Notes: generated from the letters alone by a model not told the origin. A stretch of DNA of 64,000 nt from Minisyncoccota bacterium (GCA_035546615.1 DASZWM010000003.1:1-64000), one strand, 5' to 3'. Numbered from the stretch's first letter, positions 17,081-60,642 are shown. Program-made: numbers and translations.

Positions 17081-19254
17081 TTCCCGAGTTGATAGAGCTG
17101 CAGCACCTCCGACGCAGACAACGCCCGGTTGTATATGCGCACTTCGTCCATGGAACCATTGAAGTACCAGGTCGAAGCGGGAATATGCTGCCCTATGGCG
17201 AGCGGCTGGCTAGTTGTCATGTCGCCTGTCTTCGCAGCAATAGCAACCTGCGCACCATCTACATAGAGCACCATATTGCCCGTTCCAGAGCCGTCGCGTG
17301 TAGCGGCGACTAGATGCCACTTGCCGTCGTTGTAGGAAGCCGAACTGTCCGCACATGCGATCGAGCTGCTTACCGACACATCAAAGCGGATCTTTCCGCT
17401 CGCGCTCGCATTGCCGCACGTGCCGCCACCAACCAGAAGGAGCATCTCGGTACCGCCGGACGCCTTGGAGACGATACCGCCAAGCTGGCTGCTCGTATAT
17501 TTTATCCAGGCAGAAACTGTGAAGGCGTTATTGTCTATCGCGGATGCGTCCGGAACGCGTACATATGCGTTGGTTCCATTAAACCGCAGTCCCTGCCCCA
17601 ATTTGCCTTGGACCTTCGCCGACGATGTGGCCGCATTGTAGAAGTAGCCGTTGTTGGTGCCGGCGCGGTCATACACCTTGTCGGTTACATCAGCGCCATT
17701 AAAGCTCCAGTAGCCGACCAGGCCGCTCCCCAGCGTCGTGCCATTTTGCAAAGCGGCGCCTGAAGAGGCCTTGCCTCCTCCAAGCTGATAGAGCTGGCGT
17801 ACCTCTGTTGCCGAAAGCGCGCGATTATATACACGCACATCATCGAGCGAACCCGCTAGTGTCTGCCAATATGGATCAGCGCTCTTGCCTAATCGCAGCG
17901 GCTGATTGGTCATGGTAAATACCGGCGCGGTCCCGCTCTCCGCGACCGCGCCGTCGACATACAGTGAAGAAGAGCCTCCCGAAACATACGTAAGGACGAC
18001 ATGGTGCCACAAGCCGCCGACTCGGATGGTCGCGTCGCTGAGGCCGAGCGTCGTACTATTATTTTTGATCTGTACGCCTACCAGGCCGTTGTATGAAAAG
18101 ATGCTGTAGCCGTTGAGGGAGCTCGAAGAGTCCGCTTTGCCCGCCAAAAAGTATCCATTGCCCCCAGAGGCAGTGGGGATTTTATACCAGAAGCTTACTG
18201 TTCCCGTGCCTCCGTCCAAAGAAGAAGCATCGGAAACGTTCACATAGCTGGTATTTCCGTTAAAGGTGAGCGCCTGGCCGAGCTTGCCTGTAACTTTCAT
18301 CGAGCTGGTTGCAACACCGCCACCGATGTATCCATTATTCCCTTGCACGCTACTGTCTCCAATTGTTGTGCCAACGGTCGAGCCGTCAAAAGTCCACCAG
18401 CCTACGAGCCCGTTTTGTAGTGTAGAACCGTTGCCTAACGTGGCCGAAGATGCGTTGTATCGCGTGCCTGCGGTCCGGCTGTAGAGCACCGTTATTTCCG
18501 CCTGCGGAAGCGCCCGGTTGTATATGCGCACATCGTCTACCTTGCCTTTGAAGTAGTTGTCCGGATAATCTCCCGAGTTGCCGAAATGGAAGTTGCCCAT
18601 GCCGCCCGCCCCCGGCGTGCCCGTCCACGTGTTGCTGCCCTGGAGAACGCCGTTCACGTACAGGCGAATCGTGTACGTCGTGCCTGAGAGCGACCAGGTC
18701 GCCACAAGATGGGTCCAGGTGTTTTGTACGATATTTCCGGAAGCGGTCACTCCGGCCTCGACGCCGCTTGCTATGTTGGGGGACGTTACGAAGCGCCAGC
18801 GGCCCGGGCTGCCATTGCCGCCTTCGTCTATGAGCATGTAGCCGTTATTGGAAGTACCGAGCTTCCAGCCCGCCGGGCTTATCCAGTCGGCATACGCGGT
18901 CGGATACGCCCATACCGAGATGCTGCCGGAGGACGTCCACGGCGCTCCGGTGGAGACGTAGTTATTAGTCGCCCCGAACGTAAGCGCCTTTCCAAGCTTT
19001 CCGGTTGTCCAAGCCGGACTGCTCGTGAGCGTGCCGTTATGCGGGGTCGCGCTATGGTCATATGCGGTCGTTCCCCTGCCCTCCTCAAGATTCCAGTAGC
19101 CTACGAGGCCGAGGCTGTTAGCAGGCTTGATGATAGCCGCGTGCCCGACCGCAGGCAATGCGAACAGCGCTATGCCGCACAGCAAGATAATTTTGGACTT
19201 ACGAAGTCCAAAATATGAAGCGGCGTTTTGCTGCGGCTCTAGAGGAATTGCCAT
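17077..19254 (-). CDS. secreted protein with four LamG-like lectin repeats (paralog of previous gene)
   Basis: Four 'xDDVRxYNRALSxxEVxQLY' repeat ends and an N-terminal hydrophobic signal. A 4-bp overlap with the downstream paralog suggests an operon. Confidence 0.7.
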   Translation of the reverse strand: MAIPLEPQQNAASYFGLRKSKIILLCGIALFALPAVGHAAIIKPANSLGLVGYWNLEEGRGTTAYDHSATPHNGTLTSSPAWTTGKLGKALTFGATNNYVSTGAPWTSSGSISVWAYPTAYADWISPAGWKLGTSNNGYMLIDEGGNGSPGRWRFVTSPNIASGVEAGVTASGNIVQNTWTHLVATWSLSGTTYTIRLYVNGVLQGSNTWTGTPGAGGMGNFHFGNSGDYPDNYFKGKVDDVRIYNRALPQAEITVLYSRTAGTRYNASSATLGNGSTLQNGLVGWWTFDGSTVGTTIGDSSVQGNNGYIGGGVATSSMKVTGKLGQALTFNGNTSYVNVSDASSLDGGTGTVSFWYKIPTASGGNGYFLAGKADSSSSLNGYSIFSYNGLVGVQIKNNSTTLGLSDATIRVGGLWHHVVLTYVSGGSSSLYVDGAVAESGTAPVFTMTNQPLRLGKSADPYWQTLAGSLDDVRVYNRALSATEVRQLYQLGGGKASSGAALQNGTTLGSGLVGYWSFNGADVTDKVYDRAGTNNGYFYNAATSSAKVQGKLGQGLRFNGTNAYVRVPDASAIDNNAFTVSAWIKYTSSQLGGIVSKASGGTEMLLLVGGGTCGNASASGKIRFDVSVSSSIACADSSASYNDGKWHLVAATRDGSGTGNMVLYVDGAQVAIAAKTGDMTTSQPLAIGQHIPASTWYFNGSMDEVRIYNRALSASEVLQLYQLGK

Positions 19255-19781
19255 GTTTGGAATATCTGCTTGAGCAGGCCGTCGAGGCGGTCGTACGTCG
19301 ATATCTGGTACAGGTTGCCCCGGAAGACGAACCAGACTTCCCGGCTGGCGCCGCCGAATGCTTCGTTATCGCTCTTGAATGCAAGTCCATTATAGTTATT
19401 CCCAACCTCCAGCACCTGCGGGTCCAGTATCGTGAGGTCCGGCACGTCCGTCTGGATGCGTTCCTGCGTGAGCGTGTAGCCGCTTCCTGTATCCTCGTCG
19501 AAGGGGCTAACGGTTATTTGTATCCCGTTCCCCTGCTTGTCCTGAAGCACGATGGTGTTGGGCGTGCCGTCCGGGTCGCCGGGAATGTCGGTCGCGTCGA
19601 AGTCGGCCGGCATTTTGAGGGAAAAATTATACGTGCTGTTTTTGTAGTCTTTTGAAAGCGCGGGTACGGTATACGGCGGCAATTGCGGCTCCGGCGAGGC
19701 GGGCGCCGCGCGGAAGAACACGAAGTACGCGCACGCGGCGGCGGCGAGAACTAACACGGCTGCAATGAGTAGTTTTTTCAT
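19239..19781 (-). CDS. secreted/lipoprotein-like hypothetical protein
   Basis: 'MKKLLIAAVLVLAAAACAYF' signal peptide. It lies between the giant protein and the LamG genes in the same operon. Confidence 0.5.
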   Translation of the reverse strand: MKKLLIAAVLVLAAAACAYFVFFRAAPASPEPQLPPYTVPALSKDYKNSTYNFSLKMPADFDATDIPGDPDGTPNTIVLQDKQGNGIQITVSPFDEDTGSGYTLTQERIQTDVPDLTILDPQVLEVGNNYNGLAFKSDNEAFGGASREVWFVFRGNLYQISTYDRLDGLLKQIFQTWQFL

Positions 19782-19784
19782 AGA

Positions 19785-22700
19785 TTATTCTTGCTGATCT
19801 GTCGGCTGGGAATCTGCGGGGGGCTGTTCATCAGACGGTGCGGGGTCCTGCGGCGCCGGGTCGGCTGGCGCGGGCGGCGTGCTGGAAGCCTGGCTGCCGT
19901 TATCTTCAGGCGGGGTAGGAGGCGTCGAGCTGGCCGTATCATCGTCGCCGGACGGAGGAGCATCTCCTCCGTTTTGGCCCGGAGTCACGCCCGACGCCTG
20001 CACTATCGCCAGGAACTGGTCCTGCGTTACGCACACGTCGCCCACGCACAGCATGTCCGTGTGCACTTCCTTGGCGAAGAGCTTGGTAATGCCGTTAGCC
20101 GCGTTGGCGAGCCAGCCGATCAGGTTATCCCTGAATACGCCCGTTATCGAGGCCATTTCCTGTATCGCTACGACGATGGGCGAGATGAGCCCTTCGTAGT
20201 TGAAAAGGTATGTGCCGCCGGGAGTGAGCGGCGTCGCCACGTCGCGCGTCACGAGATTCGGGAATGTAACCTGCGCCTCCTGCGCGATGAAGCCGTACTG
20301 CGTGGTAGAGGTCGAGAGGTCGACGCCGAACACAGGCCCAGCCCAGCGGAACGAAACCGGCCTAAGCGCAAGCAGCTTCTCGAGCATGGTCTGCGGCAGC
20401 GTCTCGATATCCTTCTTGAGACGCTGGTCGGACGAGCAGCCGCTGCAGGAGGCCACCGTAAGCGCGCCCCCGGTTGTGAGCGTGAGCTTGGGCGACGAAG
20501 CGAGGTTGCTGCTGGTATTGAGGCTGAAGTTGTTATTGGAATCCTTGCCCGCAAACCACGAGTTCGCGGCGTCGCGGAACTCGATGCCCACGTTGGCAGT
20601 GGCAGTACGGCGCTCGAGCGTCAACGGAATGGCGTTGGTGCCGGAGAAGATGCCCTGGTCGGTGCCTAATTCCGTGGAGAATGCGCGCCATGGCGTCGTA
20701 GTGCCGATGCCGATGCGCAGGTTCTGGGCGCCGCCGCTTCCGTCCGCTTCGCCGTAGACCGTTAGCACACCCTGGCCGCCTACGTTTGCTGTATAACTTT
20801 CTACGGTTCCTGCCGAAGCGTTCGAGGAAATAGGCAGATCAGCCCAGGAAACGATGCCTGCATCCGTGTCGAAGTTGAACGCGCCGACCGCAAGATTGTT
20901 GATAGAGGTAATGCCGGAGGAGAAATCATAGGTAAGCTGGCCCGAGCCGACATTAAGCCCTCCCGCAATCGTCGAGGTTGCCGTGGTTGATGTTGCGGTA
21001 AAGAAAGTTGAGACAGTCTCCCCCACTACTGAGAGCTTCGCATAAGGCGAGGTGGTACCGATACCCACATTGCCGGAATTGGTAACAGTAAACAGCGTCG
21101 TAGTCGCTCCTGCTTGAGTGGAAGATGCGATAAGGAAAAGATTTACGAGAGAACCCGTCGCGCCGTTTGGCGTGGCAACGGTAAGAAGCGCCAGAGGTGA
21201 GGTCGTCCCGATGCCGACGTTGCCAGTTGTATCAACAGTAAAATTGCTCGTGGAATTGTTGTTAGTAAATGTGAACTTTGAACCGTAGAGGTAGAATGGT
21301 TTTGTCGATAGGACAACGCTGCCCGTAGTGTTGCCCGAGAAAAGATATGAGCGATCATTCGAGCTGTCATAGGCGGCGGTGAGACCTGTTCCGCTCGTAT
21401 AGGAGAACGTGCCGCTGCGCGCAAAGATGCCGTTAGTAAACGCTCCTGTACCTGATACATCGAGGGCAACGGTGGGGCTTGCCACACCAATGCCAACAGT
21501 GCCGGCAAAGTATGCATTGCCCGTCGTCGTTGCGCCTCCGGAAATCGTAAGGCCTGTCGCCTGTGTAGCGTTGCCGATCGTGGTCGAGGCTGCGAGTACG
21601 GAAAAAAGAGATTTTGCATAAAAACTGATACCGACGTTTGTTGAGGTGGCAATGAGTATGTCGCCGCTTTGCGCGGCAACACTGCCCGAGGCGTCGCGAT
21701 ATTGCGGGAAGAGGTTCGCATAGGTCGAGCCGTCTTTAAGGCGCAATCCTTGCTGGTTGTACTGATTGGTAATATTTTGCAGCTGTGTCGCGCCGTTGTA
21801 GAACGACAACTGGTTTACATTGCTGATATTGCTATTACTCATGTCGATCCCTCCCGAAAACGTGAGCGCAGTAGAAGTTGCATTGCTCGGGAATAGATAA
21901 CTAAAACTTGCCCCTCCCCCGCTGAGCGGCGTCGTGGTAGCAATTAATTTGCCGAACGGATCGACCGCAAGAAACGCCCCGGCCGGGGCCGCAAGCCCGG
22001 TGATGTACTGGCTCGTCGTGGTCGCGCCGGTAGAAAGAAGCCACGGGAACGTGTTTGTCGCGTTCGTAACCGCGGTAAAGTAGCTCGCCACCGCGCGCCC
22101 GACCACGGACAGCGCCGCGTAGGGCGATGTAGTGCCGATGCCGACCCGCAGGTTCTGCACTCCCCCGCTGCCGTCGCTCTCGCCGTACGCGGTAAGCACG
22201 CTCGTGTCTCCGATATTTATCGACTGCGACTGGATAACGCCCGCGGCGGCGTTTGAATCGACCGGGATATTGGAAAGCGCGACGACGCCGGCGTTCGTGT
22301 CGAAGTTGAGGTTGCCTATGCTGAGGTTCGCTATCGTGGTGGAACCTGTTGCCGCGTCGACTGTGAAGGCATTGCTTCCGTTCGTCCCAACGGATAGCAC
22401 GCCGGCGTTCGAAAGGGTGAGAAGCGACGTGGATGCGCTATTGGCAATCTCAAGCGCATTGCCGGAGGAAGACGAGGCCCCCCAGACGGTGAGCCGCGCG
22501 TACGGCGAGGTGGTGCCCACAGCAAGGTTGCCGTCGGCGGTAAGGCGCATCTTCTCCGTGTTATTGGTAAAGAAGCCTATCGGATGGTTGGTAAAGTTGC
22601 CCAGATAGAATCCCGGCGTACCCAGCGGTCCGGTGCCGAGGCCGTCGGCATAGAACTGCGAGGCAACTGCGCTGTTGTTGGCATACAGTATGGCGCCCGC

Positions 22701-25259
22701 ATACGACTGCCCGCTCGTATTCGTGTTCGAGATCGTATAGCGCACGCCGCGGGAATTATTGATGCTCTTCTGCACGAAGATCGATTCAAGCGAATCATAG
22801 CCGCCCACGTAGAGGTTGCCGCCGAAGTATGCGTTGCCGGTCGTGGTCGCCGCGCCGTTTACGGTCAGCCCGAGCGCGCCGCCCCCGATAGTCGTTGACG
22901 CGTAGATGCCGAGGCCGGTCGTGGTCGCGTTGGCCGGGAAGAGGTAGCTGAACGAGCTTCCCGTGCCGCCGGAGATGCCAAGGCTCGAGGTTGCGACGTT
23001 CGCCCACTTGGAGCCGTTATACACGAGCACATTGCCCACGGCAGGGGCAGAGACGAGGGTGTCCGATAGCGCGGCGAGCGCGCCCCCGCCGGCAATGCCC
23101 AGGCTCGAGGTCGCTACCAGGCTGTAGCCGCCGGAGGAATTGCCCATCAGCACCTGGCCGTAGCTTGGCGCGCTTGAAAGCCCGGTGCCACCCTGTGCTA
23201 CCCCCAGCAGTCCGCTGAGGTCCGAGAGCGGCGGAATGGAGGTGATGCCGCCGCCTCCTCCCCCGCGGCTTGAGAACTTCGGCGAGAGCGCAGCCGCCTC
23301 TATCTTGGGAAGCAGGTAGTTCGTGAGGGTTACCAGCCGCGCGGTCAGATACGCTTCTGTAACGCCGGAATTTACATTCTGCACGATGGAGTAGGTCGGA
23401 TACGACGCCTGCATGGAAATCGGCACTGAAGGAATGATGTACGCTCCAGGCGCAGAGGTAATGGGCGCGGCCGGGGCGACAGCGATGTCAGGAACGGGGG
23501 CAGGATATATGACGAACGTATTACTCTGAGTCGCTACCGCGGGCTCCTTGGGCCAGAAGAACGCCAATATGCTGTTAAAGAAACCGCCTGCAGCCGAAAG
23601 GGAGACCGAGGCGGCGTTCGCGGGCGAGGCCGGATGTCGGTCTACAGCGCCTGTAGCCGCCACATACGCGGAAGCCGTAGCGTCCGCTCCACGCGCGAGC
23701 GTCTTGCCTATCCCGCCGACCGCGGCTGCATATCCGCCTGCGGCGGTATCGGCGCCCCGTACAAAAGCTACACCTGCGGAACCTACGGCGGCGGCATAGG
23801 CATCGGCGGCCGCCTCCGCTTCGGCGACGAACCCGCGGCCTATGTCCCCTACGAGGGCCGCGTAGATGTCGGGCATTTCCTGGGCCGTCGCGACGAACTG
23901 TGCGCTAAACGCGCCGACCGCCGCCGCATACGCGTCGGACGCGGCGTTCGCTCCATTTACAAACGCCTTCCCTATACCGCCCACGGCAGACGCGTAGGCA
24001 TCCGTAACGGATCCTTCAACGGATCTGGCCATTGCATCAACCCGTAGGGCGAATGCGGGAGTAGTATTGAGCGTTTCGGCAATAAGCTGTACCCCGCCGA
24101 GGACCGTGCGCCGGTATGCGACCGACTCGCCGCCGAGGGTGGCCGCGGCTGAGGCAAGCTTCATGTACGCCTGGGCCTGGGACGCGGCCGTGTCATCAGC
24201 GCCCCGCACAAAGGCCACGCTTGCCCGGCCGTATGCTGTCGCGGCGGCATCCGCGAGCGAAAGCGACTGCCTGCTGAACCGCGAAAGCGAGGCGACATAC
24301 GCGTCCCGCGCGGCCTCCGCAGAGGCGACGAATGTAACGTACCCGGCGTTCTGCCACTCCGCGAGCGCGTCCGCAGCGTATGCGATGCCGCGGTGGACAG
24401 CGGCGACCTCGCTTGCGAAGCGGGTGAGATTTTCGGTTATGAAAAGATACGGAAGCGAAGCGACAGCCAAAACAGGCGATATGACCTTATCTGTCGCGAT
24501 AGTTTGCACAATGCCGGAGCGGCTTCCGCCGGACGCGTACGACGGCGCTTCAGGAACGGCGATAACCGGAATGGGCCGCGCCGAAGCGACAGCCGCCGCC
24601 ATGAAGAGCGTATTCCCAAGCGCGGCGGTGTGGGAGCCCGCACCACCAAGAACGTCGGTCCCCTTTTCCTGCTTTTTAAAACCGTCTTTCTCAGCGGCTG
24701 CCGGCATCAGCGGCTCCCATGCTGACGGGGATGACTTTTGCGGATACAGCTCCGCTACCGCAACTATGCCTGATGCGACATTGCGCTGCAGTGACGCGGC
24801 CCTCTCCCCAGCTAGCTGAAGCGCGGCCCCGCCCCAAGCCCCCGACGCGTACCCGGCGCCCACGAAAAAGAGCCCGAGCGCGAATGCGAGCCCGTATACA
24901 TGCGGCTCGTGGGCGACGAACGGGCTCTTTACCGGCTGCGGCTCGGCCGGAGCTTCTTCGGGAGCTTGTGAAAAAACAGGCGCGCGCTCATGATACTCGC
25001 GCTTAAGCTTATTCGAAAGCGCAGCCTTGCGCGTCGTACGCTCTTCATCCGCGCTGCGTATGTACGCTTCCAGGGATTCAATGCTCACATAGCGCGAGCG
25101 GCCTACCAACGTGCCCGCTATCTTGCCCTTGCGGCACAGGGACGCAATATGGTCGTTGGTCAGGTTAAAGCGCGCCGCGGCCTCTACAGCGGAAATATAC
25201 CCGCCGGGAACGGCAGGCGGCGTTTGTGCTGATTGTGATACGGGGTTAGGGTCTTGCAT
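19785..25259 (-). CDS. giant (1824 aa) membrane-anchored surface protein: N-terminal HTH, TM, Ala-rich repeats, tail-fibre-like GTTSPY repeats, C-terminal intramolecular chaperone (S74-like) domain and Pro-rich tail
   Basis: HTH 'ISAVEAAARFNLTNDHIASLCRKGKIAGTLVGRSRYVSIESLEAY'. TM segment 'YGLAFALGLFFVGAGYASGA'. Repeated 'AYAAAVG..FVRGAD' units. Motifs 'GIGTTSPYAxLSVVG' x5. Near the C-terminus 'CSGCSSDQRLKKDIETLP..VSFRW', resembling the Ser-Lys dyad region of endosialidase/tail-spike chaperone domains. Confidence 0.8.
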   Translation of the reverse strand: MQDPNPVSQSAQTPPAVPGGYISAVEAAARFNLTNDHIASLCRKGKIAGTLVGRSRYVSIESLEAYIRSADEERTTRKAALSNKLKREYHERAPVFSQAPEEAPAEPQPVKSPFVAHEPHVYGLAFALGLFFVGAGYASGAWGGAALQLAGERAASLQRNVASGIVAVAELYPQKSSPSAWEPLMPAAAEKDGFKKQEKGTDVLGGAGSHTAALGNTLFMAAAVASARPIPVIAVPEAPSYASGGSRSGIVQTIATDKVISPVLAVASLPYLFITENLTRFASEVAAVHRGIAYAADALAEWQNAGYVTFVASAEAARDAYVASLSRFSRQSLSLADAAATAYGRASVAFVRGADDTAASQAQAYMKLASAAATLGGESVAYRRTVLGGVQLIAETLNTTPAFALRVDAMARSVEGSVTDAYASAVGGIGKAFVNGANAASDAYAAAVGAFSAQFVATAQEMPDIYAALVGDIGRGFVAEAEAAADAYAAAVGSAGVAFVRGADTAAGGYAAAVGGIGKTLARGADATASAYVAATGAVDRHPASPANAASVSLSAAGGFFNSILAFFWPKEPAVATQSNTFVIYPAPVPDIAVAPAAPITSAPGAYIIPSVPISMQASYPTYSIVQNVNSGVTEAYLTARLVTLTNYLLPKIEAAALSPKFSSRGGGGGGITSIPPLSDLSGLLGVAQGGTGLSSAPSYGQVLMGNSSGGYSLVATSSLGIAGGGALAALSDTLVSAPAVGNVLVYNGSKWANVATSSLGISGGTGSSFSYLFPANATTTGLGIYASTTIGGGALGLTVNGAATTTGNAYFGGNLYVGGYDSLESIFVQKSINNSRGVRYTISNTNTSGQSYAGAILYANNSAVASQFYADGLGTGPLGTPGFYLGNFTNHPIGFFTNNTEKMRLTADGNLAVGTTSPYARLTVWGASSSSGNALEIANSASTSLLTLSNAGVLSVGTNGSNAFTVDAATGSTTIANLSIGNLNFDTNAGVVALSNIPVDSNAAAGVIQSQSINIGDTSVLTAYGESDGSGGVQNLRVGIGTTSPYAALSVVGRAVASYFTAVTNATNTFPWLLSTGATTTSQYITGLAAPAGAFLAVDPFGKLIATTTPLSGGGASFSYLFPSNATSTALTFSGGIDMSNSNISNVNQLSFYNGATQLQNITNQYNQQGLRLKDGSTYANLFPQYRDASGSVAAQSGDILIATSTNVGISFYAKSLFSVLAASTTIGNATQATGLTISGGATTTGNAYFAGTVGIGVASPTVALDVSGTGAFTNGIFARSGTFSYTSGTGLTAAYDSSNDRSYLFSGNTTGSVVLSTKPFYLYGSKFTFTNNNSTSNFTVDTTGNVGIGTTSPLALLTVATPNGATGSLVNLFLIASSTQAGATTTLFTVTNSGNVGIGTTSPYAKLSVVGETVSTFFTATSTTATSTIAGGLNVGSGQLTYDFSSGITSINNLAVGAFNFDTDAGIVSWADLPISSNASAGTVESYTANVGGQGVLTVYGEADGSGGAQNLRIGIGTTTPWRAFSTELGTDQGIFSGTNAIPLTLERRTATANVGIEFRDAANSWFAGKDSNNNFSLNTSSNLASSPKLTLTTGGALTVASCSGCSSDQRLKKDIETLPQTMLEKLLALRPVSFRWAGPVFGVDLSTSTTQYGFIAQEAQVTFPNLVTRDVATPLTPGGTYLFNYEGLISPIVVAIQEMASITGVFRDNLIGWLANAANGITKLFAKEVHTDMLCVGDVCVTQDQFLAIVQASGVTPGQNGGDAPPSGDDDTASSTPPTPPEDNGSQASSTPPAPADPAPQDPAPSDEQPPADSQPTDQQE

Positions 25260-31591: not shown

Positions 31592-31892
31592 CCTAGCGCA
31601 TTGAGCAGCAGCTCCGGCCGCAAGGCGGGAGAGGAAAGTCCGAACACTTCGCGCGGCAGCGATGCCGCGCAACGGTAGCAGGTAACGCCTGTCGTTTGCT
31701 TCTGGCGGGCAAAAGGGGTGCGAACAGTGACGAACCGGTTAAGTCCGGGTGAAACGGCTAAATCCCTATCGGAGTGCAAGGCCGTGCCTGAGGGGCAACC
31801 CTTGGGAGTGCCGCTTGAGGCCGCGGGCGACCGCGGTCCCAGATAAATTGCCGCTCAAGACAGAATTCGGCTTACAGATGCGCGCGCTAGAT
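31592..31892 (+). ncRNA. rnpB: RNase P RNA (bacterial type, compact)
   Basis: P4 strands 'GAGAGGAAAGTCCGAACAC' and 'ACAGAATTCGGCTTAC'. Also 'GCAGGTAACGCCTG' and 'GGGTGAAACGGCTAAATCCC'. Ends 'CTAGCGCA..TGCGCGCGCTAG' form P1. A 'TATAAT' at 31582-31587 lies just upstream. Confidence 0.8.
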
Positions 31893-53242: not shown

Positions 53243-53524
53243 TTATTTTAGCTTTTTGCAAAAAGCTAAAATACTTTCGGCGCGGGGCGTGAGGGTATGG
53301 CGTACGTTCATCCCGTCGCTGCGCTTGTAGAGGAGCCCGGCGATAGCCATCTTGCGCAGATGGTCGGAAGCGTTCATATATCCCATCCCCAGCTTTTCCG
53401 CTATCCCCTCGATCGAGAGGCCCGGGGTCTGCTTGAGCAGATCCAATACCTGAAGGCGCCTATAGCTGGCAAAGCCTTTCACTATCCGCTCAAGCCGGCG
53501 ATATTCGCCCTGGTCTTTCGGCAT
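53243..53524 (-). CDS. ArsR/SmtB family transcriptional regulator
   Basis: 'YRRLQVLDLLKQTPGLSIEGIAEKLGMGYMNASDHLRKMAIAGLL' winged HTH. Start taken at MPKDQ. Confidence 0.75.
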   Translation of the reverse strand: MPKDQGEYRRLERIVKGFASYRRLQVLDLLKQTPGLSIEGIAEKLGMGYMNASDHLRKMAIAGLLYKRSDGMNVRHTLTPRAESILAFCKKLK

Positions 53525-53548
53525 GGCGAAGACTATATACGGTGTTTT

Positions 53549-53625
53549 ACGTTTTTGCAAAAAGCTTTGATAAAAGGGCGGGGCGGGCGGGAACGAAAGG
53601 CTTTATCACGGCTTTTTGCAAAAAG
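53549..53625. promoter_or_regulatory. two GCTTTTTGCAAAAAGC palindromes upstream of arsR (candidate operators); third copy at 53249-53268
   Basis: 'CGTTTTTGCAAAAAGC' at 53549-53564 and 'GCTTTTTGCAAAAAGC' at 53610-53625. A perfect 20-bp copy 'TAGCTTTTTGCAAAAAGCTA' lies at the arsR 3' end. Confidence 0.45.
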
Positions 53626-53647
53626 CTAAAATAAAAGAAATACATAA

Positions 53648-53694: not shown

Positions 53695-54105
53695 TTATCT
53701 GATGCGGATCCGGCGGAGGGCTTTGCGGGCTTTTTTGTAGTCCGGAATGGTCTCTTCGACCAGGGCCCAGAAGGCGGGGCTGTGGTTCATTTCCTTCAGG
53801 TGGCACAGCTCGTGGGTTACGACATATTCGGCCAGGCGCGGCGGCAAGAAAAGGAGGCGGTAGTTGAAGTTGAGGTTGCCGTGCTCCGAGCAGCTCCCCC
53901 ACCGCGAACGGCTGTTCTTTATGAATACCCGGCGCACGGCGTAGTCGTAGTGCGCGTTGAGGCGCGCGATGAGCGCATGGACAAGCGCGCGAGCCTCTTC
54001 CTTATACAGCTGGAACTTCCGCGAACTAGCCGCCGAAGCCGGGCGTCGTCTCCGTACCCGCCGCCGATATACGATTTTGTATCCAAACACCGAGGTATTG
54101 TACAA
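53695..54105 (-). CDS. YgjP/DUF45-family metal-dependent hydrolase (short)
   Basis: 'SRWGSCSEHGNLNFNYRLLFLPPRLAEYVVTHELCHLKEMNHSPAFWALVEETIPDYKKARKAL' carries an HExxH-like motif. Confidence 0.5.
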   Translation of the reverse strand: MYNTSVFGYKIVYRRRVRRRRPASAASSRKFQLYKEEARALVHALIARLNAHYDYAVRRVFIKNSRSRWGSCSEHGNLNFNYRLLFLPPRLAEYVVTHELCHLKEMNHSPAFWALVEETIPDYKKARKALRRIRIR

Positions 54106-54141: not shown

Positions 54142-54540
54142 CTACAAAATTGAGATAACTTTCTTAACGACGGAGTCTGAAGCACTCTTGAGTCGATGTT
54201 CCCATATTCTTAATACCTTCCAATTCATACTTTTTAATTGTTTATTAACCAATCTATCTCTTTTCTTATTTCTTTCTATTTTGTTAGTCCAATATGCGCG
54301 ATTTGTCTTTGGAACTCTACAGTGAGTCTTACATCCGTGCCAAAAACAAGAGTCAATGAAAATTGCTGTCTTAGAAACAGAAAAAACAATATCAGGTCTG
54401 CCTGGCAATTTTGCCACATGAGTTGTAAACTTTAGTTTACTTTTTTTCAGTTGCTTCTGAAAAGATTTTTCTATACCTGAATTTCTACTCTTAATGAGAC
54501 GCATTATTTCGCTGCGTCTTCCAGAAGATACATTGTCCAT
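54142..54540 (-). CDS. vsr: very-short-patch-repair endonuclease Vsr
   Basis: 'IVFSVSKTAIFIDSCFWHGC..PKTNRAYWTNKIERNKKRD' is the Vsr signature. Confidence 0.85.
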   Translation of the reverse strand: MDNVSSGRRSEIMRLIKSRNSGIEKSFQKQLKKSKLKFTTHVAKLPGRPDIVFSVSKTAIFIDSCFWHGCKTHCRVPKTNRAYWTNKIERNKKRDRLVNKQLKSMNWKVLRIWEHRLKSASDSVVKKVISIL

Positions 54541-54544
54541 GCCT

Positions 54545-55612
54545 TTATTCTTCTATATCCCAACCTGTTGGAAGTGTGATTTTGGTATAGGCTCTTTCTT
54601 TGATAAAAGGGACAATCTCTGCGCTCGAAGGAAACTCTGCGTCAAATTCTCTCGTTAAATCACTTAACAAAGTGCCAGCAAGTCGTTCTCTATATTCTTT
54701 ACTGAGGCAAAGAGTATACCAGTCATGCAAATCTTTAAGAGTAATTATTCCTTGCACACGCTCAATAATCCCGAGCTGTTGTAGCAGGGCCTCAATAGGT
54801 TTCTTTTCTGCGTCTCGACAAACAATTACAATCCTGTCCGCTTCGATTCCCTCGACAATTCCTTCGGTTACTTCAGGAGTAAGTGTAAGGTGTTTTACCT
54901 GGATAGCTGTTCCAAAATTTGCCCACATATCTAATCCCCTATCCGCCGCATTCGTTACGCCAACTCTAAAAAGGGCTGCGGGCATAGCTACTTGAGTCTT
55001 TCTGGCATCTATGCCTAAAACCATTTTTATAAAACCTTCAAAATCAGTAAGTATTTCTTTGTCTTCATTTTTAATCGAAAGGGTGATTTCCGCTTTTAAT
55101 GCTCGTACAATAGCGGAAAAAAGAGCATGCACTGCTATTTCATATATTTTATCTGTGCTTCGTCTCAAGCCAGGACTTGATGTAAAAAGTTCCACTAATT
55201 CCATTATGGAAAAAGTGTCCACTGTTGACTGTTCGATATAGTCTCTTACCCGATGAACAGATAGTAACTTATTTTGTAAAGCTTTATAAATATAAGCCTC
55301 TACTCCGCCCTTACTTGTTGTATTTATTTTTCCTAACACTGCCAATAGTTGGGGCGGCATAGCATTAGGCTCAAAGATATTATCTTGGTACTTTGCGCTA
55401 GAAGTACTGCTCCTCCCAACAAGTAAGGTGGAGACTTCATCTCTCCAACGTTTAGAGACAGAGCGATAACTTTCTAGATCAGTTAGTTCTAGCTTTTTCT
55501 TAGTTCTATGATAGAAAAGTATCTCCGCTATCTGTATAGGTTTATAGAAGTGCACTCTGGCCTTCTTTATAACTGAATCCAGAGCCGCTTTTGCTTCTTC
55601 AGCCATTGACAT
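54545..55612 (-). CDS. putative type II restriction endonuclease (partner of adjacent C5-MTase)
   Basis: 355 aa, AT-rich. It overlaps the methyltransferase gene by 14 bp and sits upstream of vsr. No family assignment possible by eye. Confidence 0.4.
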   Translation of the reverse strand: MSMAEEAKAALDSVIKKARVHFYKPIQIAEILFYHRTKKKLELTDLESYRSVSKRWRDEVSTLLVGRSSTSSAKYQDNIFEPNAMPPQLLAVLGKINTTSKGGVEAYIYKALQNKLLSVHRVRDYIEQSTVDTFSIMELVELFTSSPGLRRSTDKIYEIAVHALFSAIVRALKAEITLSIKNEDKEILTDFEGFIKMVLGIDARKTQVAMPAALFRVGVTNAADRGLDMWANFGTAIQVKHLTLTPEVTEGIVEGIEADRIVIVCRDAEKKPIEALLQQLGIIERVQGIITLKDLHDWYTLCLSKEYRERLAGTLLSDLTREFDAEFPSSAEIVPFIKERAYTKITLPTGWDIEE

Positions 55613-56621
55613 ACGCCCGTTCTACCATATTTATGTCTTTTCCGCTAAACAATTCAGTTTGTTCAATAAAAGGAACCGGGTCTTTCGACATTGCTTCAAC
55701 CATTGCGTGGGCCACTGCTTCCATCTGAGGAACCACTACAGCATTACCAGCTTGCTTCCGGATTTGCTGGTCAGCAACAACAAATTTATATGAATCGGGA
55801 AAACCCTGTAATCTAAACATCTCTCTAGGAGTCAGTCTTCTTTCTCCATTTACAATAAGATAGTTATATGAACCATTAGCCCTAAGAGCGCATGAATAAG
55901 CATTCACGCCTAGGTTTCCAGACTTATTTTCGTGCAAGATTAACGGACGAGAATGAAGTTCTTTGTGTTGTTCTTTTAATTGTCTCTGGACTTTCTGCAA
56001 CATATAATCGCTAAGAAAGTGTTTTTTATCGACCTCATTATCAGGCTCAAGGATGTCTTCAAGAGTTTTCTTTTTTCCCCTCCCTTTGGTAGGAAATTCA
56101 AAAGGGTAGTTTTCTCTAAAACCTACAATCATTATTCGCTCTCTCTTTTGCGGAACGCCAAAATCTAGACCATTTAAAACTTTAAAGTGCACAAAATAAC
56201 CTAGTTTTCTTAAACTATTTAGAATTACTGAAAACGTCCTTCCTTGATCATGATTGGTAAGTTGTTTTACATTTTCCAAAAATAGAGCTTTTGGTTTCTT
56301 TGCCTTTAGAATTCTCTCAACATCAAAAAACAACGTGCCTCTTGTTTCAGAGAAACCTTTCATATTCCCCATGATGCTAAAAGCTTGGCATGGAAAACCG
56401 CCTGTCAAAATATCATGGTCAGGCACATCTTTTGCAACTATTTTCGTTATATCTCCATCTGGCTGGTCGCCGAAATGATTCTTATACATCTTCTGCGCAG
56501 CTTCATCCCATTCTGATGTAAAAACACATTTACCTCCTGCCGCTTCAAAACCAAGTCTAATGCCTCCAATTCCTGCAAAGAGATCGATAAAAGTAAATTT
56601 ATTCTTATTCGTTGGAGCCAT
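55599..56621 (-). CDS. DNA (cytosine-5)-methyltransferase
   Basis: Motif I 'FIDLFAGIGGIRLGFE', motif IV 'GGFPCQAFS', motif VI 'ENVKQL'. C-terminal target-recognition region. Confidence 0.9.
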   Translation of the reverse strand: MAPTNKNKFTFIDLFAGIGGIRLGFEAAGGKCVFTSEWDEAAQKMYKNHFGDQPDGDITKIVAKDVPDHDILTGGFPCQAFSIMGNMKGFSETRGTLFFDVERILKAKKPKALFLENVKQLTNHDQGRTFSVILNSLRKLGYFVHFKVLNGLDFGVPQKRERIMIVGFRENYPFEFPTKGRGKKKTLEDILEPDNEVDKKHFLSDYMLQKVQRQLKEQHKELHSRPLILHENKSGNLGVNAYSCALRANGSYNYLIVNGERRLTPREMFRLQGFPDSYKFVVADQQIRKQAGNAVVVPQMEAVAHAMVEAMSKDPVPFIEQTELFSGKDINMVERAYVNG

Positions 56622-56851: not shown

Positions 56852-57193
56852 CTATTGTGGCAAACCCTTAATTTTGTTTCTGAAGAAATTAAATCGCATC
56901 TTAGCATAGTCCCAAAGAAAAGAGCAGAACGACTTATTTGGATGTCTTTTTATTTCACGCAAGTTCTCGAAAGCATAATTAAGTATATCTATAAATAATA
57001 ACCCTGGTACAACACCCAATGCGAATATATACCAATCAGAAAAACGTGTTTTTAACAAACTGTAAGTCGCATTTACTGCAATTCCAAGAACTACCGCAAG
57101 CGTCGCACCGAGTATCACAAATGCCCACTGTATTTGTAGACTTCTTTCCTCTTGTAAATCACCCTTGTTCATGGCGAATATATCTAATAACAA
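56852..57193 (-). CDS. 2-TM membrane protein (last gene of Ubl/E1 operon; candidate effector)
   Basis: '..IQWAFVILGATLAVVLGIAVNATY..WYIFALGVVPGLLFIDIL..'. AT-rich. Confidence 0.4.
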   Translation of the reverse strand: MLLDIFAMNKGDLQEERSLQIQWAFVILGATLAVVLGIAVNATYSLLKTRFSDWYIFALGVVPGLLFIDILNYAFENLREIKRHPNKSFCSFLWDYAKMRFNFFRNKIKGLPQ

Positions 57194-57201
57194 GTAAAAA
57201 A

Positions 57202-57618
57202 TTATTCGAAGAAGCTACGCAATTGGACTAATATCCAGTTTCCAAATCGTCGCCACCATGACAGGGAGGAATGAATAAAGTATGCATCCTTGATGGTATC
57301 GTCATATTCTCGCCCGTGGCGTATCTGTTCTCGAGTCATCTTCGACGCCCAAATCACTTGATTTTCAATAATCCAATAATGTGACTGACAAGGATGATTC
57401 CAGTTTCCTATTGAAGGACGTAGCGAGACCACCCCCTGCCAATCAACTAGCGTATATTCGGTCTTACGGAGAGGGGTAACGATTTTAGTGCCACAACTGC
57501 AACAGCACAAATGGCTCGCGGTTCCGAAACGTCGTGAGATATATAGAACACCACTCTCAAGCTCTCTTGGTATGAACTCAACATATTCAGGACGCACCAA
57601 CTCTGTCTTCATATACAA
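57202..57618 (-). CDS. Cys/His-rich 138-aa protein of unknown function (Ubl/E1 operon)
   Basis: 'ASHLCCCSCGTKIV', 'NHPCQSHYW'. No JAMM HxH motif. Overlaps the E1 gene by 10 bp. Confidence 0.4.
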   Translation of the reverse strand: MYMKTELVRPEYVEFIPRELESGVLYISRRFGTASHLCCCSCGTKIVTPLRKTEYTLVDWQGVVSLRPSIGNWNHPCQSHYWIIENQVIWASKMTREQIRHGREYDDTIKDAYFIHSSLSWWRRFGNWILVQLRSFFE

Positions 57619-58808
57619 TCCTCTTTTGTAAGGGCGTGGGTCGCAATCGTGTACAGCGAATGACGTTCTCGCACATCATCAGCATAAAAACCACACAATT
57701 GCTTCCATTTTCCCACAGCCATGGCAGCATTTAGCATATTTAGGTCCGCAACCTGCATATTACGGTACACCGCCTCGGCCGGCACTTTTGCAAATGAAAC
57801 AACTTCCGCAATATGTCCATGATGGTCGGGTGTTCCAACTGTAAAGCGACACTGTCCGCGCAGAGACGCCTGATTATCGAGTGCCAAGTCTATTCCAACG
57901 TCTATGAACGGCACACCAAGAGCAATAAGGCCATTAAGTATGTTCTTCCGGCTCTCTCCGTCGTCGATAGCAACAAACACGAAGTCGAACCCGGACAGCT
58001 CGTGGAGATGCGCGTCCTGGACATAGTAGGGATGACGCTTCAAGCCCTTGTGTATACGTTCGTATATACCACTGAACCAATCCACTTTTAGTGGATTGTT
58101 AAGCTCCTGCTTCATCGGAGCACCCGGTGCTCTAAACGCGTTGTGGAGTTCGAACGTATCCCCATCGAAAATGTGGATTTCTTTCACCGGCGTCTTAGCA
58201 ACAAGGTCGAGAATATACGAACCAGTACCACCTAGTCCTATAATCGCCACCCGACTTGCAAGGAGTTTCGCCGTGGCCGCTCCAATACCAGCACGGGTTG
58301 TTGCCATATCAGGATAATGGAATGCGAGTTCCTGAGCTTCGACTACCGCCGGTACTGGTTTTTCACTTCGTGGATCGCAAGTCCGATCAATTGCTTGAGC
58401 TTCGTGCCAAATCAGACGAACATATGTCCAGATTTTTTCGTAGTAGTCGGCATACTTGCGCTTATCAGCGTGCACACGCGAGAAGGCGACAGTCGTCTTA
58501 ATCCCATCGCCCTTATCCTCCTCAGCGTTGTTCGAAATCATCTCCGTCATTAGTTGACCATCCGCGTTGTGCGGGGGTTCTCCAATCCACCAACACTGAT
58601 GGTTGGAACATGGATTCACTGTCTTTCCGGCCGCATCAATTTCAAGTGGGCAATAGAGAATTCCAGGCACTATTTTGCCTTCAGAGGTAACAGCAGGAAT
58701 TCCCTCAATTAAAAGATGAGAGGCAGTCCCTTGAATGACCCGGAGACGAAAACCTTCCGCCTCCAACTTTGCCAAATCGGCATTATGACTTATCCGTATT
58801 TCTGACAT
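57609..58808 (-). CDS. E1-like (ThiF/MoeB family) adenylyltransferase with ~170-aa N-terminal extra domain (possible E2-like)
   Basis: Rossmann 'VAIIGLGGTGSYILDLVAKTPVKEIHIFDGDTFELHNAFR', a C-terminal Cys/His region 'GTPDHHGH', and an N-terminal Cys-containing domain of unknown fold. Confidence 0.65.
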   Translation of the reverse strand: MSEIRISHNADLAKLEAEGFRLRVIQGTASHLLIEGIPAVTSEGKIVPGILYCPLEIDAAGKTVNPCSNHQCWWIGEPPHNADGQLMTEMISNNAEEDKGDGIKTTVAFSRVHADKRKYADYYEKIWTYVRLIWHEAQAIDRTCDPRSEKPVPAVVEAQELAFHYPDMATTRAGIGAATAKLLASRVAIIGLGGTGSYILDLVAKTPVKEIHIFDGDTFELHNAFRAPGAPMKQELNNPLKVDWFSGIYERIHKGLKRHPYYVQDAHLHELSGFDFVFVAIDDGESRKNILNGLIALGVPFIDVGIDLALDNQASLRGQCRFTVGTPDHHGHIAEVVSFAKVPAEAVYRNMQVADLNMLNAAMAVGKWKQLCGFYADDVRERHSLYTIATHALTKEDCI

Positions 58809-59040
58809 CGAAGTTCATATGATCGACCACATCTACACTTTGGCCCCGGCGAAGCGATCCTTCGTGTCCACCTGGCTTAGTCCATGAAACGCTGTAGCGA
58901 ACATCGCCTCCGAACGGACCAGTTGGGAATGCGAGCTTGATGACTTGCTCGTAGCTAATATCGTGTTCACCCCACTTCTCTTGAATACCGTTCACAACAA
59001 TGCTTATGGTGTGTCCATGCCCTTTATTATCGTCTGCCAT
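58783..59040 (-). CDS. ubiquitin-like beta-grasp protein (multiubiquitin-domain-like), first gene of operon
   Basis: An 85-aa protein with 'HTISIVVNGIQEKWGEHDISYEQVIKLAF..YSVSWTKPGGHEGSLRRGQSVDVVDHMNFDV'. It is translationally coupled to the E1 gene. There is no C-terminal GG. Confidence 0.4.
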   Translation of the reverse strand: MADDNKGHGHTISIVVNGIQEKWGEHDISYEQVIKLAFPTGPFGGDVRYSVSWTKPGGHEGSLRRGQSVDVVDHMNFDVRNTDKS

Positions 59041-59224
59041 ATAATTTTAATTGTCGGCTTTTTAATTTAAGTGCGGCACCGGTCGACCGCACTTGTATCG
59101 TACACCCATTTCTGATACCCTTGCAAGGTAACTAGATGTATCAAATGTTACCTAAAGTACCATATTTGTTATATCTGATACCTGTTGTTACAACCTATAA
59201 CAAGTTACGCACAGATTTCAAATC

Positions 59225-59584
59225 ATGAGAAAATCATCCGCTACAATAAACAATGAAAGCAGATCCACAGAGCTTGAAATCCGGAAAGAGATTGGCAGAC
59301 GTATCGCTGAAATGCGTAGCAAACTGGGGCTTACAGCTCGCCTTGTTGCCAAAGAACTTCATGTCTCACGCGAAGCCATTACTCACATTGAAACAGGGCG
59401 AAACAATATATCTGCCGTATCGCTGTGGGAATTGGCGACTCTCTTCCATTGTGATATTGCTGATTTTTTCCCTGATATTCCTAATGGATATTCTTTAACT
59501 AGGGTCGATATTAATAAAGTAGCACAAATGAGTGGAAAGACAGGGGCGGCATGGGCTGAAAAGATTTTTGGGAAAAAGAAATAA
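59225..59584 (+). CDS. XRE-family HTH transcriptional regulator
   Basis: 'IGRRIAEMRSKLGLTARLVAKELHVSREAITHIETGRNNISAVSLWELATLF'. Confidence 0.8.
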   Translation: MRKSSATINNESRSTELEIRKEIGRRIAEMRSKLGLTARLVAKELHVSREAITHIETGRNNISAVSLWELATLFHCDIADFFPDIPNGYSLTRVDINKVAQMSGKTGAAWAEKIFGKKK

Positions 59585-59588
59585 ATAT

Positions 59589-60083
59589 ATGATGTCAGAA
59601 AGAATTGAGAAAAAAGCGGAGGAAGTCTTAAGCGCACTGAATGTTAAGTCAATACCTATCTCTGTTGAAGAAATCGCGAATCAATTAAAGATCAAGATAG
59701 GAAGAGCACCTAGTAGTGAATTTTCTGGAATGTTGATTCGAAAAGATGGTCGAGCACTTATGGGTATAAATAACAGTGAAGGCACTGCGAGACAACGATT
59801 CACTATTGCGCATGAACTTGGGCATTATTTCTTACATCCACAAAATGATACTTTTGTAGACTATAGGCAGAACGAAAAAGAACCAAGAAATCATAGAGAA
59901 CGAGAGGCTGATATGTTTGCAGCAGCACTCTTAATGCCTAGGAAAGAAGTAACAAAAGACTTTCAGAAAATTGTTAGGAAAGGATTTTCAGAAATTGAAC
60001 TTCACAAACTGGCAGGAAAATATGAAGTGAGCGACAAAGCAATGAGATTTAGGTTAGTAAACTTAAATATGCTATTAGGTTAA
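59589..60083 (+). CDS. ImmA/IrrE-family zinc metallopeptidase
   Basis: 'FTIAHELGHYFLH' (HExxH) and 'EREADMFAAALLMP' downstream. Starts 5 nt after the XRE stop. Confidence 0.8.
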   Translation: MMSERIEKKAEEVLSALNVKSIPISVEEIANQLKIKIGRAPSSEFSGMLIRKDGRALMGINNSEGTARQRFTIAHELGHYFLHPQNDTFVDYRQNEKEPRNHREREADMFAAALLMPRKEVTKDFQKIVRKGFSEIELHKLAGKYEVSDKAMRFRLVNLNMLLG

Positions 60084-60540: not shown

Positions 60541-60642
60541 GCGGATATGATACCACCGAACTCCTGAGCTAACTCAAGAGTTAGCTCAGGAGTTAATTAA
60601 AAACCGGCGCCTGGGGCGCCGGTTTGGCCAAGGTTGGCCGGA

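Follow-up and report, generated by a model that had tools for sequence, protein, structure and literature searches.

A 64,000-nucleotide stretch from a Minisyncoccota bacterium (GCA_035546615.1 DASZWM010000003.1:1-64000), referred to here as the window, very probably carries a Type II Bub operon in the region 56,852 to 60,083. The operon is accompanied by a divergent pair of genes for an XRE-family helix-turn-helix (HTH) protein and a short M78 peptidase, and the whole lies within a horizontally acquired island of low guanine-plus-cytosine (GC) content. Bub operons, formerly called 6E or DUF6527 operons, were defined in two preprints from the Corbett laboratory in 2024. Those of Type II (formerly 6E.2 or DUF6527 operons) comprise BubA, a ubiquitin-like protein (Ubl), BubBD, an E2-E1 fusion, and BubE, a DUF6527 protein, and usually lack a JAB peptidase (Ye, Gong, Chambers, Corbett 2024, doi 10.1101/2024.11.21.623953; hereafter the Bub paper). 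A sequence-only reading of this DNA had delimited six open reading frames, all of which exist. With the region between the divergent transcription units, the features are as follows.

58783..59040, minus strand: bubA, an 85-residue Ubl that has one beta-grasp domain and ends in ...NTDKS-COOH (Pfam Multi_ubiq PF14452, E 4e-12)
57609..58808, minus strand: bubBD, a 399-residue E2-E1 fusion (Pfam DUF6791 and ThiF)
57202..57612, minus strand: bubE, a DUF6527 serine protease of 136 residues from the ATG at 57612 (Pfam PF20137, DUF6527/BubE, 1.8e-18)
56852..57172, minus strand: a two-transmembrane (2-TM) protein of 106 residues with two hydrophobic helices, GC 35.7% (113 residues from the TTG at 57193)
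59041..59224, no strand: divergent promoter/operator region of 184 bp between bubA and the HTH gene
59225..59584, plus strand: an XRE-family HTH repressor of 119 residues in the CapH/ImmR position (Pfam HTH_3 4e-10; PADLOC capH 3.5e-5)
59589..60083, plus strand: a short M78 (ImmA/IrrE-type) zinc metallopeptidase of 164 residues (Pfam Peptidase_M78 3e-23; PADLOC capP 3e-38)

The analysis shows which families bubA, bubBD and bubE belong to, their folds and catalytic residues, the conservation of their synteny and the purifying selection on them. BubBD joins an N-terminal UBC-like E2 domain (DUF6791; about residues 10-167, with Ser110) to a ThiF-type E1 adenylation domain (about residues 178-399, with Arg226 and, on the crossover loop, Tyr348), as is characteristic of Type II Bub. 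Conservation was assessed in an alignment of 114 sequences, made up of the window protein, 112 database relatives and the protein of E. coli ZDHYS365 (Table S2 of the Bub paper). Arg226, equivalent to the adenylation arginine R219 of E. coli, is present in every sequence, and Ser110, equivalent to S106, the catalytic serine that replaces a cysteine in the E2 domain, in all but one. Tyr348 (E. coli Y342) is likewise found in 113 of the 114, the sole exception being the machine-read E. coli sequence. Mutation of any one of S106, R219 and Y342 in the E. coli protein abolishes conjugation (doi 10.1101/2024.11.21.623953). His70 in the E2 domain is also invariant (114/114); the Bub paper gives no residue number for the histidine that accompanies the serine. 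In NCBIfam, BubBD scores above the cut-off for an old 'hypothetical protein' equivalog, PRK06153.1-3; in PADLOC, the E1-E2 (Cap2) models cover the nucleotide-binding part of its E1 domain and nothing else (best E 4e-9).

BubA, encoded by the first gene of the operon as in other Type II systems, matches PDB 9cd2, the crystallised BubA of E. coli, and shares its TDKS terminus, without variation, with the E. coli protein and all relatives. The 3' end of bubA and the 5' end of bubBD share 26 nt, read in different frames (58783-58808). This overlap is kept in all relatives; therefore the TDKS terminus of BubA and the conserved N-terminus of BubBD are dual-coded in the same DNA.

BubE has been characterised as a Ser/His protease that carries a C4 zinc site and clears away BubA conjugates (2024 Corbett-laboratory Bub preprints), and PF20137 is labelled BubE in precomputed annotations. 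In the numbering of a 138-residue form, the window protein contains the zinc site C38/C40/C42/C77 and a Ser69/His80 dyad, and all six residues are invariant in a comparison with four relatives and the Citrobacter BubE. Its hydrophobic C-terminal tail reads ...SWWRRFGNWILVQLRSFFE; for the hydrophobic tail of BubE the Bub authors have proposed membrane association (2024 Corbett-laboratory Bub preprints). The stop codon of bubBD and the start of bubE at 57612 form an ATGA overlap with GAGGA upstream, giving a protein of 136 residues as in the relatives, and the TTG at 57618 that yields the 138-residue form is probably not the start. No JAB/JAMM peptidase was found among the Pfam matches of any island protein.

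The locus shares with the Type II Bub operon of E. coli ZDHYS365 its gene order, its three proteins, the fusion of E2 to E1 and the catalytic Ser, Arg and Tyr in it, the C4 site and Ser/His dyad of BubE, the TDKS end of BubA, the absence of a JAB protein, a location in a mobile or defence island, and an upstream HTH and M78 pair. It differs in having one beta-grasp domain in BubA where the E. coli protein has three, in carrying valine for lysine two residues past the E2 serine, and in its setting, a Paceibacterota metagenome-assembled genome with an unrelated 2-TM gene after bubE. Single-domain Ubls account for 40% of Bub Ubls (doi 10.1101/2024.11.21.623953). In Type I Bub (BubAB/BubCD/BubE of Citrobacter sp. 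RHBSTW-00271; PDB 9ea4, 9ea5 and 9eav) the Ubl is fused to the E2 and a JAB domain to the E1, whereas the window operon joins the E2 to the E1 and lacks a JAB domain. The Bil system (BilABCD) and Type II CBASS (antiphage signalling based on cyclic oligonucleotides), with its Cap2/Cap3 pair, also perform E1/E2-based protein conjugation in defence islands. These systems, however, employ Cys thioesters and JAB peptidases and, in CBASS, additionally a CD-NTase (cGAS/DncV-like nucleotidyltransferase). Instead, the window proteins have Ser at the E2 site and Tyr on the crossover loop, with no JAB or CD-NTase among the Pfam and PADLOC matches.

The sequence-only reading had recognised the Ubl and the ThiF-type E1, which the Pfam matches to Multi_ubiq, DUF6791 and ThiF bear out, and had seen no CD-NTase, in agreement with the Pfam and PADLOC matches; its suggestion that the combination might be a novel variant did not survive. 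That claim fails because of three misassignments. The E2 said to be unrecognisable is the N-terminal DUF6791 domain of the 399-residue protein. The deconjugating peptidase was declared missing and, as stated, no JAB match exists, but the activity is accounted for by the 138-residue Cys/His protein, which is BubE (DUF6527). The proposed four-gene operon is a three-gene unit in five related loci, with a variable gene after bubE. The cysteines noted in the N-terminal domain of the E1 protein are there, but the catalytic position is Ser110. In Bub chemistry, an E1 crossover-loop tyrosine and an E2 serine form oxyester intermediates (2024 Corbett-laboratory Bub preprints), and since this pathway is expected to use such intermediates, the emphasis on Cys was misplaced. 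A new E1/Ubl system without E2 and deubiquitinase is thus rejected by the DUF6791 and DUF6527 matches and by the Bub papers: the exact layout is that of Type II Bub, described in 2024, with CapH+CapP adjoining 168 of 544 Bub operons (31%; doi 10.1101/2024.11.21.623953). Novelty of host range was considered and rejected as well, as Table S1 of the same paper already contains three Type II Bub + CapP + CapH operons from Candidatus Yanofskybacteria, within the candidate phyla radiation (CPR/Parcubacteria).

The other reading open to a ThiF-like protein, that of a housekeeping enzyme activating a sulfur carrier for thiamine or molybdopterin biosynthesis in the manner of ThiF or MoeB, has a negligible probability, in agreement with the sequence-only reading. 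Scores against the NCBIfam ThiF and MoeB models are 20-30 bits, far below cut-offs of 159-275. ThiS and MoaD carriers end in Gly-Gly, unlike the Multi_ubiq protein here with its TDKS end. The fusion of an E2 to the E1 and the linked BubE argue against such a pathway too, and the neighbours are restriction-modification (R-M) genes and regulators, with no biosynthetic genes among the Pfam matches. Domain architecture and gene context together refute this candidate.

Five related loci (L001-L005) were compared with the window, one from Bradyrhizobium erythrophlei (70% identity) and four from metagenomic relatives (75-81%). The block conserved in all five consists of three genes, for the Ubl, BubBD and BubE, with the same 26-nt overlap. 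The genes 3' of bubE differ from locus to locus (SIR2-nSTAND, Abi_C, ICMT/PEMT, or unrelated genes). Between the window and its relatives dN, the nonsynonymous divergence, is 0.12-0.39; dS, the synonymous divergence, is saturated, so that the dN/dS ratio is not quantifiable, and the combination indicates long-term purifying selection. Relatives of the Bub genes occur on 125 plasmids, and no phage record carries them. A scan of genome contigs by exact peptide patterns returned four Proteobacterial loci, a result with little bearing on distribution.

Several observations weigh against the reading of the locus as an ordinary Type II Bub operon under CapH/CapP-like control. The E. coli BubBD reference was machine-read from the supplement and contains transpositions; it was used only with a consistency check, and the residue mapping relies on its numbering running two ahead past S106, an offset that holds consistently for R219 and Y342. 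The lysine regarded as 'invariant' in Type II Bub is absent, Val112 standing in the column of E. coli K108 (FSRVH versus FSRK). The 164-residue peptidase lacks the three-domain architecture of CapP as well as the cysteine-switch loop, an optional feature within the CapP family, and because it has neither GAF domain nor cysteine switch, sensing of single-stranded DNA (ssDNA) is not simply to be assumed. Finally, protection against phage has not yet been shown for any Bub operon (2024 Corbett-laboratory Bub preprints). A defence or stress context, as the sequence-only reading proposed, is nevertheless judged the most plausible setting, and an antiphage or stress-related role of Bub is likely, although demonstrated for no Bub operon so far.

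The substitution at Val112 appears to be benign. FSRK occurs in 100 of the 114 aligned BubBD sequences, and valine in 11, which are the window protein and its ten closest relatives. As mutation of K108 leaves product formation intact in vitro (Figure S5h legend of the Bub paper, doi 10.1101/2024.11.21.623953), Val112 is read as a tolerated clade variant. The same residue, in a host with a reduced genome, might be taken as a mark of decay, and the GC content of the cassette is far from that of the host. It is nonetheless extremely unlikely that the cassette is an acquired relic that no longer conjugates. All open reading frames are intact, the gene overlaps are preserved, and every residue known from experiment to be essential is present in BubBD and BubE. 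Moreover, the valine is common to a clade, which argues that it was inherited and maintained, its E. coli counterpart tolerates mutation, and dN is much lower than dS, which is saturated.

The HTH and peptidase genes are adjacent, 4 nt apart (not 5 nt, as had been reported), and divergent from bubA. The arrangement, an XRE-HTH gene and an HExxH M78 gene just upstream of a defence-type operon, is that of CapH+CapP in CBASS and other defence operons, and recurs in L002-L004. The earlier assignment of the pair to the CapH/CapP type is supported by Pfam and PADLOC, but the peptidase does not have the architecture of CapP. In canonical CapP an HTH-like linker joins the peptidase domain to a GAF domain, with ssDNA bound in the groove between peptidase and GAF, and about 33% of CapPs possess the cysteine switch (doi 10.1101/2022.04.27.489752; PMC13228613). 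The window peptidase retains HExxH at H75/E76/H79 and a conserved downstream Glu; with 164 residues against about 290, it has no C-terminal GAF domain and no cysteine, and reads V-D-Y where CapP has Q-C-S. Its PADLOC capP match spans profile positions 3-153 of 242 only, and it aligns to residues 57-155 of the 291-residue Thauera CapP (PDB 7t5t), its best PDB match. Because the GAF domain is missing, an ssDNA groove as described for CapP is impossible in this protein. Similarly, the capH profile matches only the HTH part of the 119-residue protein (positions 5-65 of 103). In the CapH+CapP system, cleavage of the repressor is stimulated by ssDNA and relieves repression of the operon, and the site that CapP cuts lies in a C-terminal dimerisation domain of CapH. 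In the window protein the C-terminal half falls outside the match, and a C-terminal segment of about 40 residues is conserved with L003.

Mechanistically, the peptidase would thus belong with the repressor-cleaving class of ImmA, IrrE and CapP, rather than with CapP proper. The same logic of a repressor-cleaving M78 metallopeptidase operates in ImmR/ImmA of ICEBs1 and IrrE/DdrO of Deinococcus. ImmA is about 169 residues long, and by size and architecture the short, single-domain window enzyme is nearer to it than to IrrE or CapP. ImmR/ImmA and IrrE/DdrO control element excision or a DNA-repair regulon, whereas the window pair is co-inherited with the Bub operon. A further possibility is that the pair is an immunity module of a mobile element, of ImmR/ImmA type, lying beside the Bub genes by accident and not controlling them. 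In its favour, the peptidase resembles ImmA in being short and in lacking both a GAF domain and cysteine, its best PHROGs matches are phage regulator and metalloprotease families, and serine recombinases are found near L003 and L005. The pair and the intergenic region are, however, co-conserved with bubA, bubBD and bubE in L002, L003 and L004 despite unrelated flanks. An M78 gene is divergent upstream in four of the five related loci (L001-L004), paired in L002-L004 with an adjacent HTH or HTH-sized gene, and in L003 and L004 both proteins are exactly the size of those in the window, with 65% and 64% identity, respectively. With no integrase, recombinase or att-like repeat found in the window island, and with the published frequency of such pairs beside Bub operons, the accidental association is quite unlikely. 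Under the preferred reading, in which the pair regulates the Bub operon, control inducible by damage or phage may be envisaged, an inference that the GAF-less peptidase weakens.

Block by block, the intergenic region that separates bubA from the HTH gene can be aligned with its counterpart in L003 and L004. It contains imperfect inverted repeats with GTAAC/GTTAC half-sites (59128-59151 and 59168-59191), partly conserved in those two loci, which are candidate operators, and a perfect 8-bp hairpin at 59069-59094. A scan for sigma-70 promoters found no strong consensus in the divergent region; it gave fewer matches than shuffled sequence and is hence uninformative, possibly because the promoters are non-canonical.

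The 2-TM gene downstream of bubE had been counted as a fourth member of the operon, with translational coupling throughout. The pairs bubA/bubBD and bubBD/bubE do overlap, but the 2-TM gene is not coupled. Its start is most likely M8 (ATG 57172), since the NCBI call and the family alignment agree; from there the gene begins 29 nt past the bubE stop, adjacent but uncoupled. The protein has no match in Pfam, PADLOC, NCBIfam or PHROGs. A word-indexed search matched nothing but the protein itself, and an exhaustive, index-free HMMER search returned a small family of 26 representatives (relatives P0122-P0146; loci L006-L012) of about 100 residues and up to 49% identity. The family shares two hydrophobic helices and the motif LQxQW...NAxYxLL...FENL, and the reading frame is therefore a real gene.

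A novel variant of Ubl-conjugation defence with four genes, the 2-TM protein being integral to it, for instance as a membrane effector or as an anchor for BubE, would be compatible with the position of the gene on the same strand as bubE, with no intervening terminator in the scan, and with the hydrophobic BubE tail and its proposed membrane association. It is very unlikely, given that the gene is absent 3' of bubE in all five related loci, and that in the four contexts examined its homologues adjoin MazG-like, HTH plus reverse transcriptase, TfoX_N or Type I HsdR genes, with no Bub genes beside them. Its GC content matches that of the R-M cargo, unlike the Bub genes at 45-49%. Membership of the Bub system was rejected on the absence of linkage, and the 2-TM gene is concluded, from these comparisons of sequence and context, to be probable independent cargo of variable regions, standing by chance between the Bub and R-M modules. 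Two family representatives (P0129 and P0130) are fused to longer C-terminal regions. Another membrane protein, unrelated to the 2-TM protein, is encoded directly 3' of bubE in L003 (7662-8234) and L004 (6438-7010), on the same strand after a 57-nt gap; it is a methyltransferase of the ICMT/PEMT family.

The systems of E. coli ZDHYS365 and Citrobacter have been characterised, and a working mechanism may be drawn from homology to them. The activity of the window's own Bub proteins is inferred, as are the inducing signal, the operator and any biological role. The E1 domain of a BubBD dimer would adenylate the C-terminal carboxylate of BubA (...TDKS) by means of Arg226. BubA would be transferred to the crossover-loop Tyr348 as an oxyester, next to the E2 domain at Ser110, and finally to a lysine of a target protein. 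BubE, zinc-stabilised and bearing a hydrophobic tail, would remove the conjugates through its Ser69/His80 protease site. In the proposed regulatory arm, the HTH protein would repress the divergent promoter through the GTAAC/GTTAC repeats until cleaved by the M78 peptidase upon a stress signal. There is also a slim chance that this clade responds to a trigger other than ssDNA, a notion prompted by the minimal, GAF-less and Cys-free peptidase, and perhaps that, in this genome, the 2-TM protein has been recruited as a membrane partner of BubE or as an effector.

The island that houses these genes measures about 6.2 kb and contains the Bub cassette, the regulator pair, the small membrane protein gene and the following.

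54142-54540, minus strand: Vsr very-short-patch repair endonuclease (Pfam Vsr 7e-18; GC 34-40%)
54545-55612, minus strand: HaeII-family restriction endonuclease (Pfam RE_HaeII 4e-127; PADLOC REase_II; GC 34-40%)
55599-56621, minus strand: C5 cytosine methyltransferase (Pfam DNA_methylase 8e-98; PADLOC MTase_II; GC 34-40%)

The last two genes overlap by 14 nt and form a complete HaeII-family Type II R-M system, which adjoins the Bub cassette. The AT-rich island put forward in the sequence-only reading, and its horizontal acquisition, are judged correct: the genes between 54142 and 60348 have a GC content of 34-49%, as compared with 59.5% outside the island (flanks about 60%). The low GC is a mosaic, with 34-40% in the Vsr, R-M and 2-TM genes, 36-42% in the HTH/peptidase pair and 45-49% in the three Bub genes. 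A comparison of window positions 57609-59040 with L001-L005 and L013-L015 found the Bub genes to be AT-richer than the host (about 60%) and than all related Bub loci examined (52-59%), which suggests a long earlier stay in a lower-GC lineage. The island borders were checked and show no convincingly long flanking direct repeats, no adjacent tRNA and no integrase. Outside the island the window is ordinary chromosome, encoding a class I aminoacyl-tRNA synthetase, LepA, GroEL, RNase J, FtsA, RNase P RNA and seven tRNAs.

At the right edge of the island, where GC regains the host level, a perfect inverted repeat of 17 bp, its loop 2 nt long (AACTCCTGAGCTAACTC / GAGTTAGCTCAGGAGTT; 60559-60594), could be a terminator or a recombination site. 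Intergenic positions 53545-53637 hold a cluster of 21-30-nt inverted and direct repeats around TTTTTGCAAAAAGC, adjoining genes for a MarR/ArsR-type HTH protein (53243-53560) and a YgjP-like metallopeptidase (53695-54105); in sequence the cluster looks like an operator array. Elsewhere in the window, three very large genes lie in a row on the minus strand (14960-25259). Two encode proteins of about 700 residues with triple LamG/ConA-like domains, and the third an 1824-residue protein with a Peptidase_S74 domain (endosialidase chaperone, tail-fibre-like); they may serve an episymbiont at its cell surface or in attachment. The RNase P RNA (bacterial class A; 31593-31890, plus strand) scores only 105 bits, where the gathering threshold is 100, and comprises 298 nt of a 367-position model, which would fit a reduced RNase P RNA.

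The locus belongs to the Type II Bub family as a routine case; its regulator pair is ImmA-like, and it is not a new kind of system. Its architecture, enzymology and HTH/M78 pairing are already published and equivalents are catalogued in CPR bacteria (Yanofskybacteria), so it carries little weight as a discovery. What Bub targets, and whether it defends against phage, are questions for the whole family which this locus makes no more tractable. Its value is modest: it offers a clean, compact, single-beta-grasp Type II Bub operon in a reduced-genome organism, beside a classical R-M system. Within the family, Val112 provides evidence from nature that the E2 lysine called 'invariant' can be dispensed with, and the M78 peptidase is an example of a minimal regulator without the mode of ssDNA sensing described for CapP. 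If true, a trigger other than ssDNA, or the recruitment of the 2-TM protein, would add a new regulatory or effector layer to the Bub pathway.

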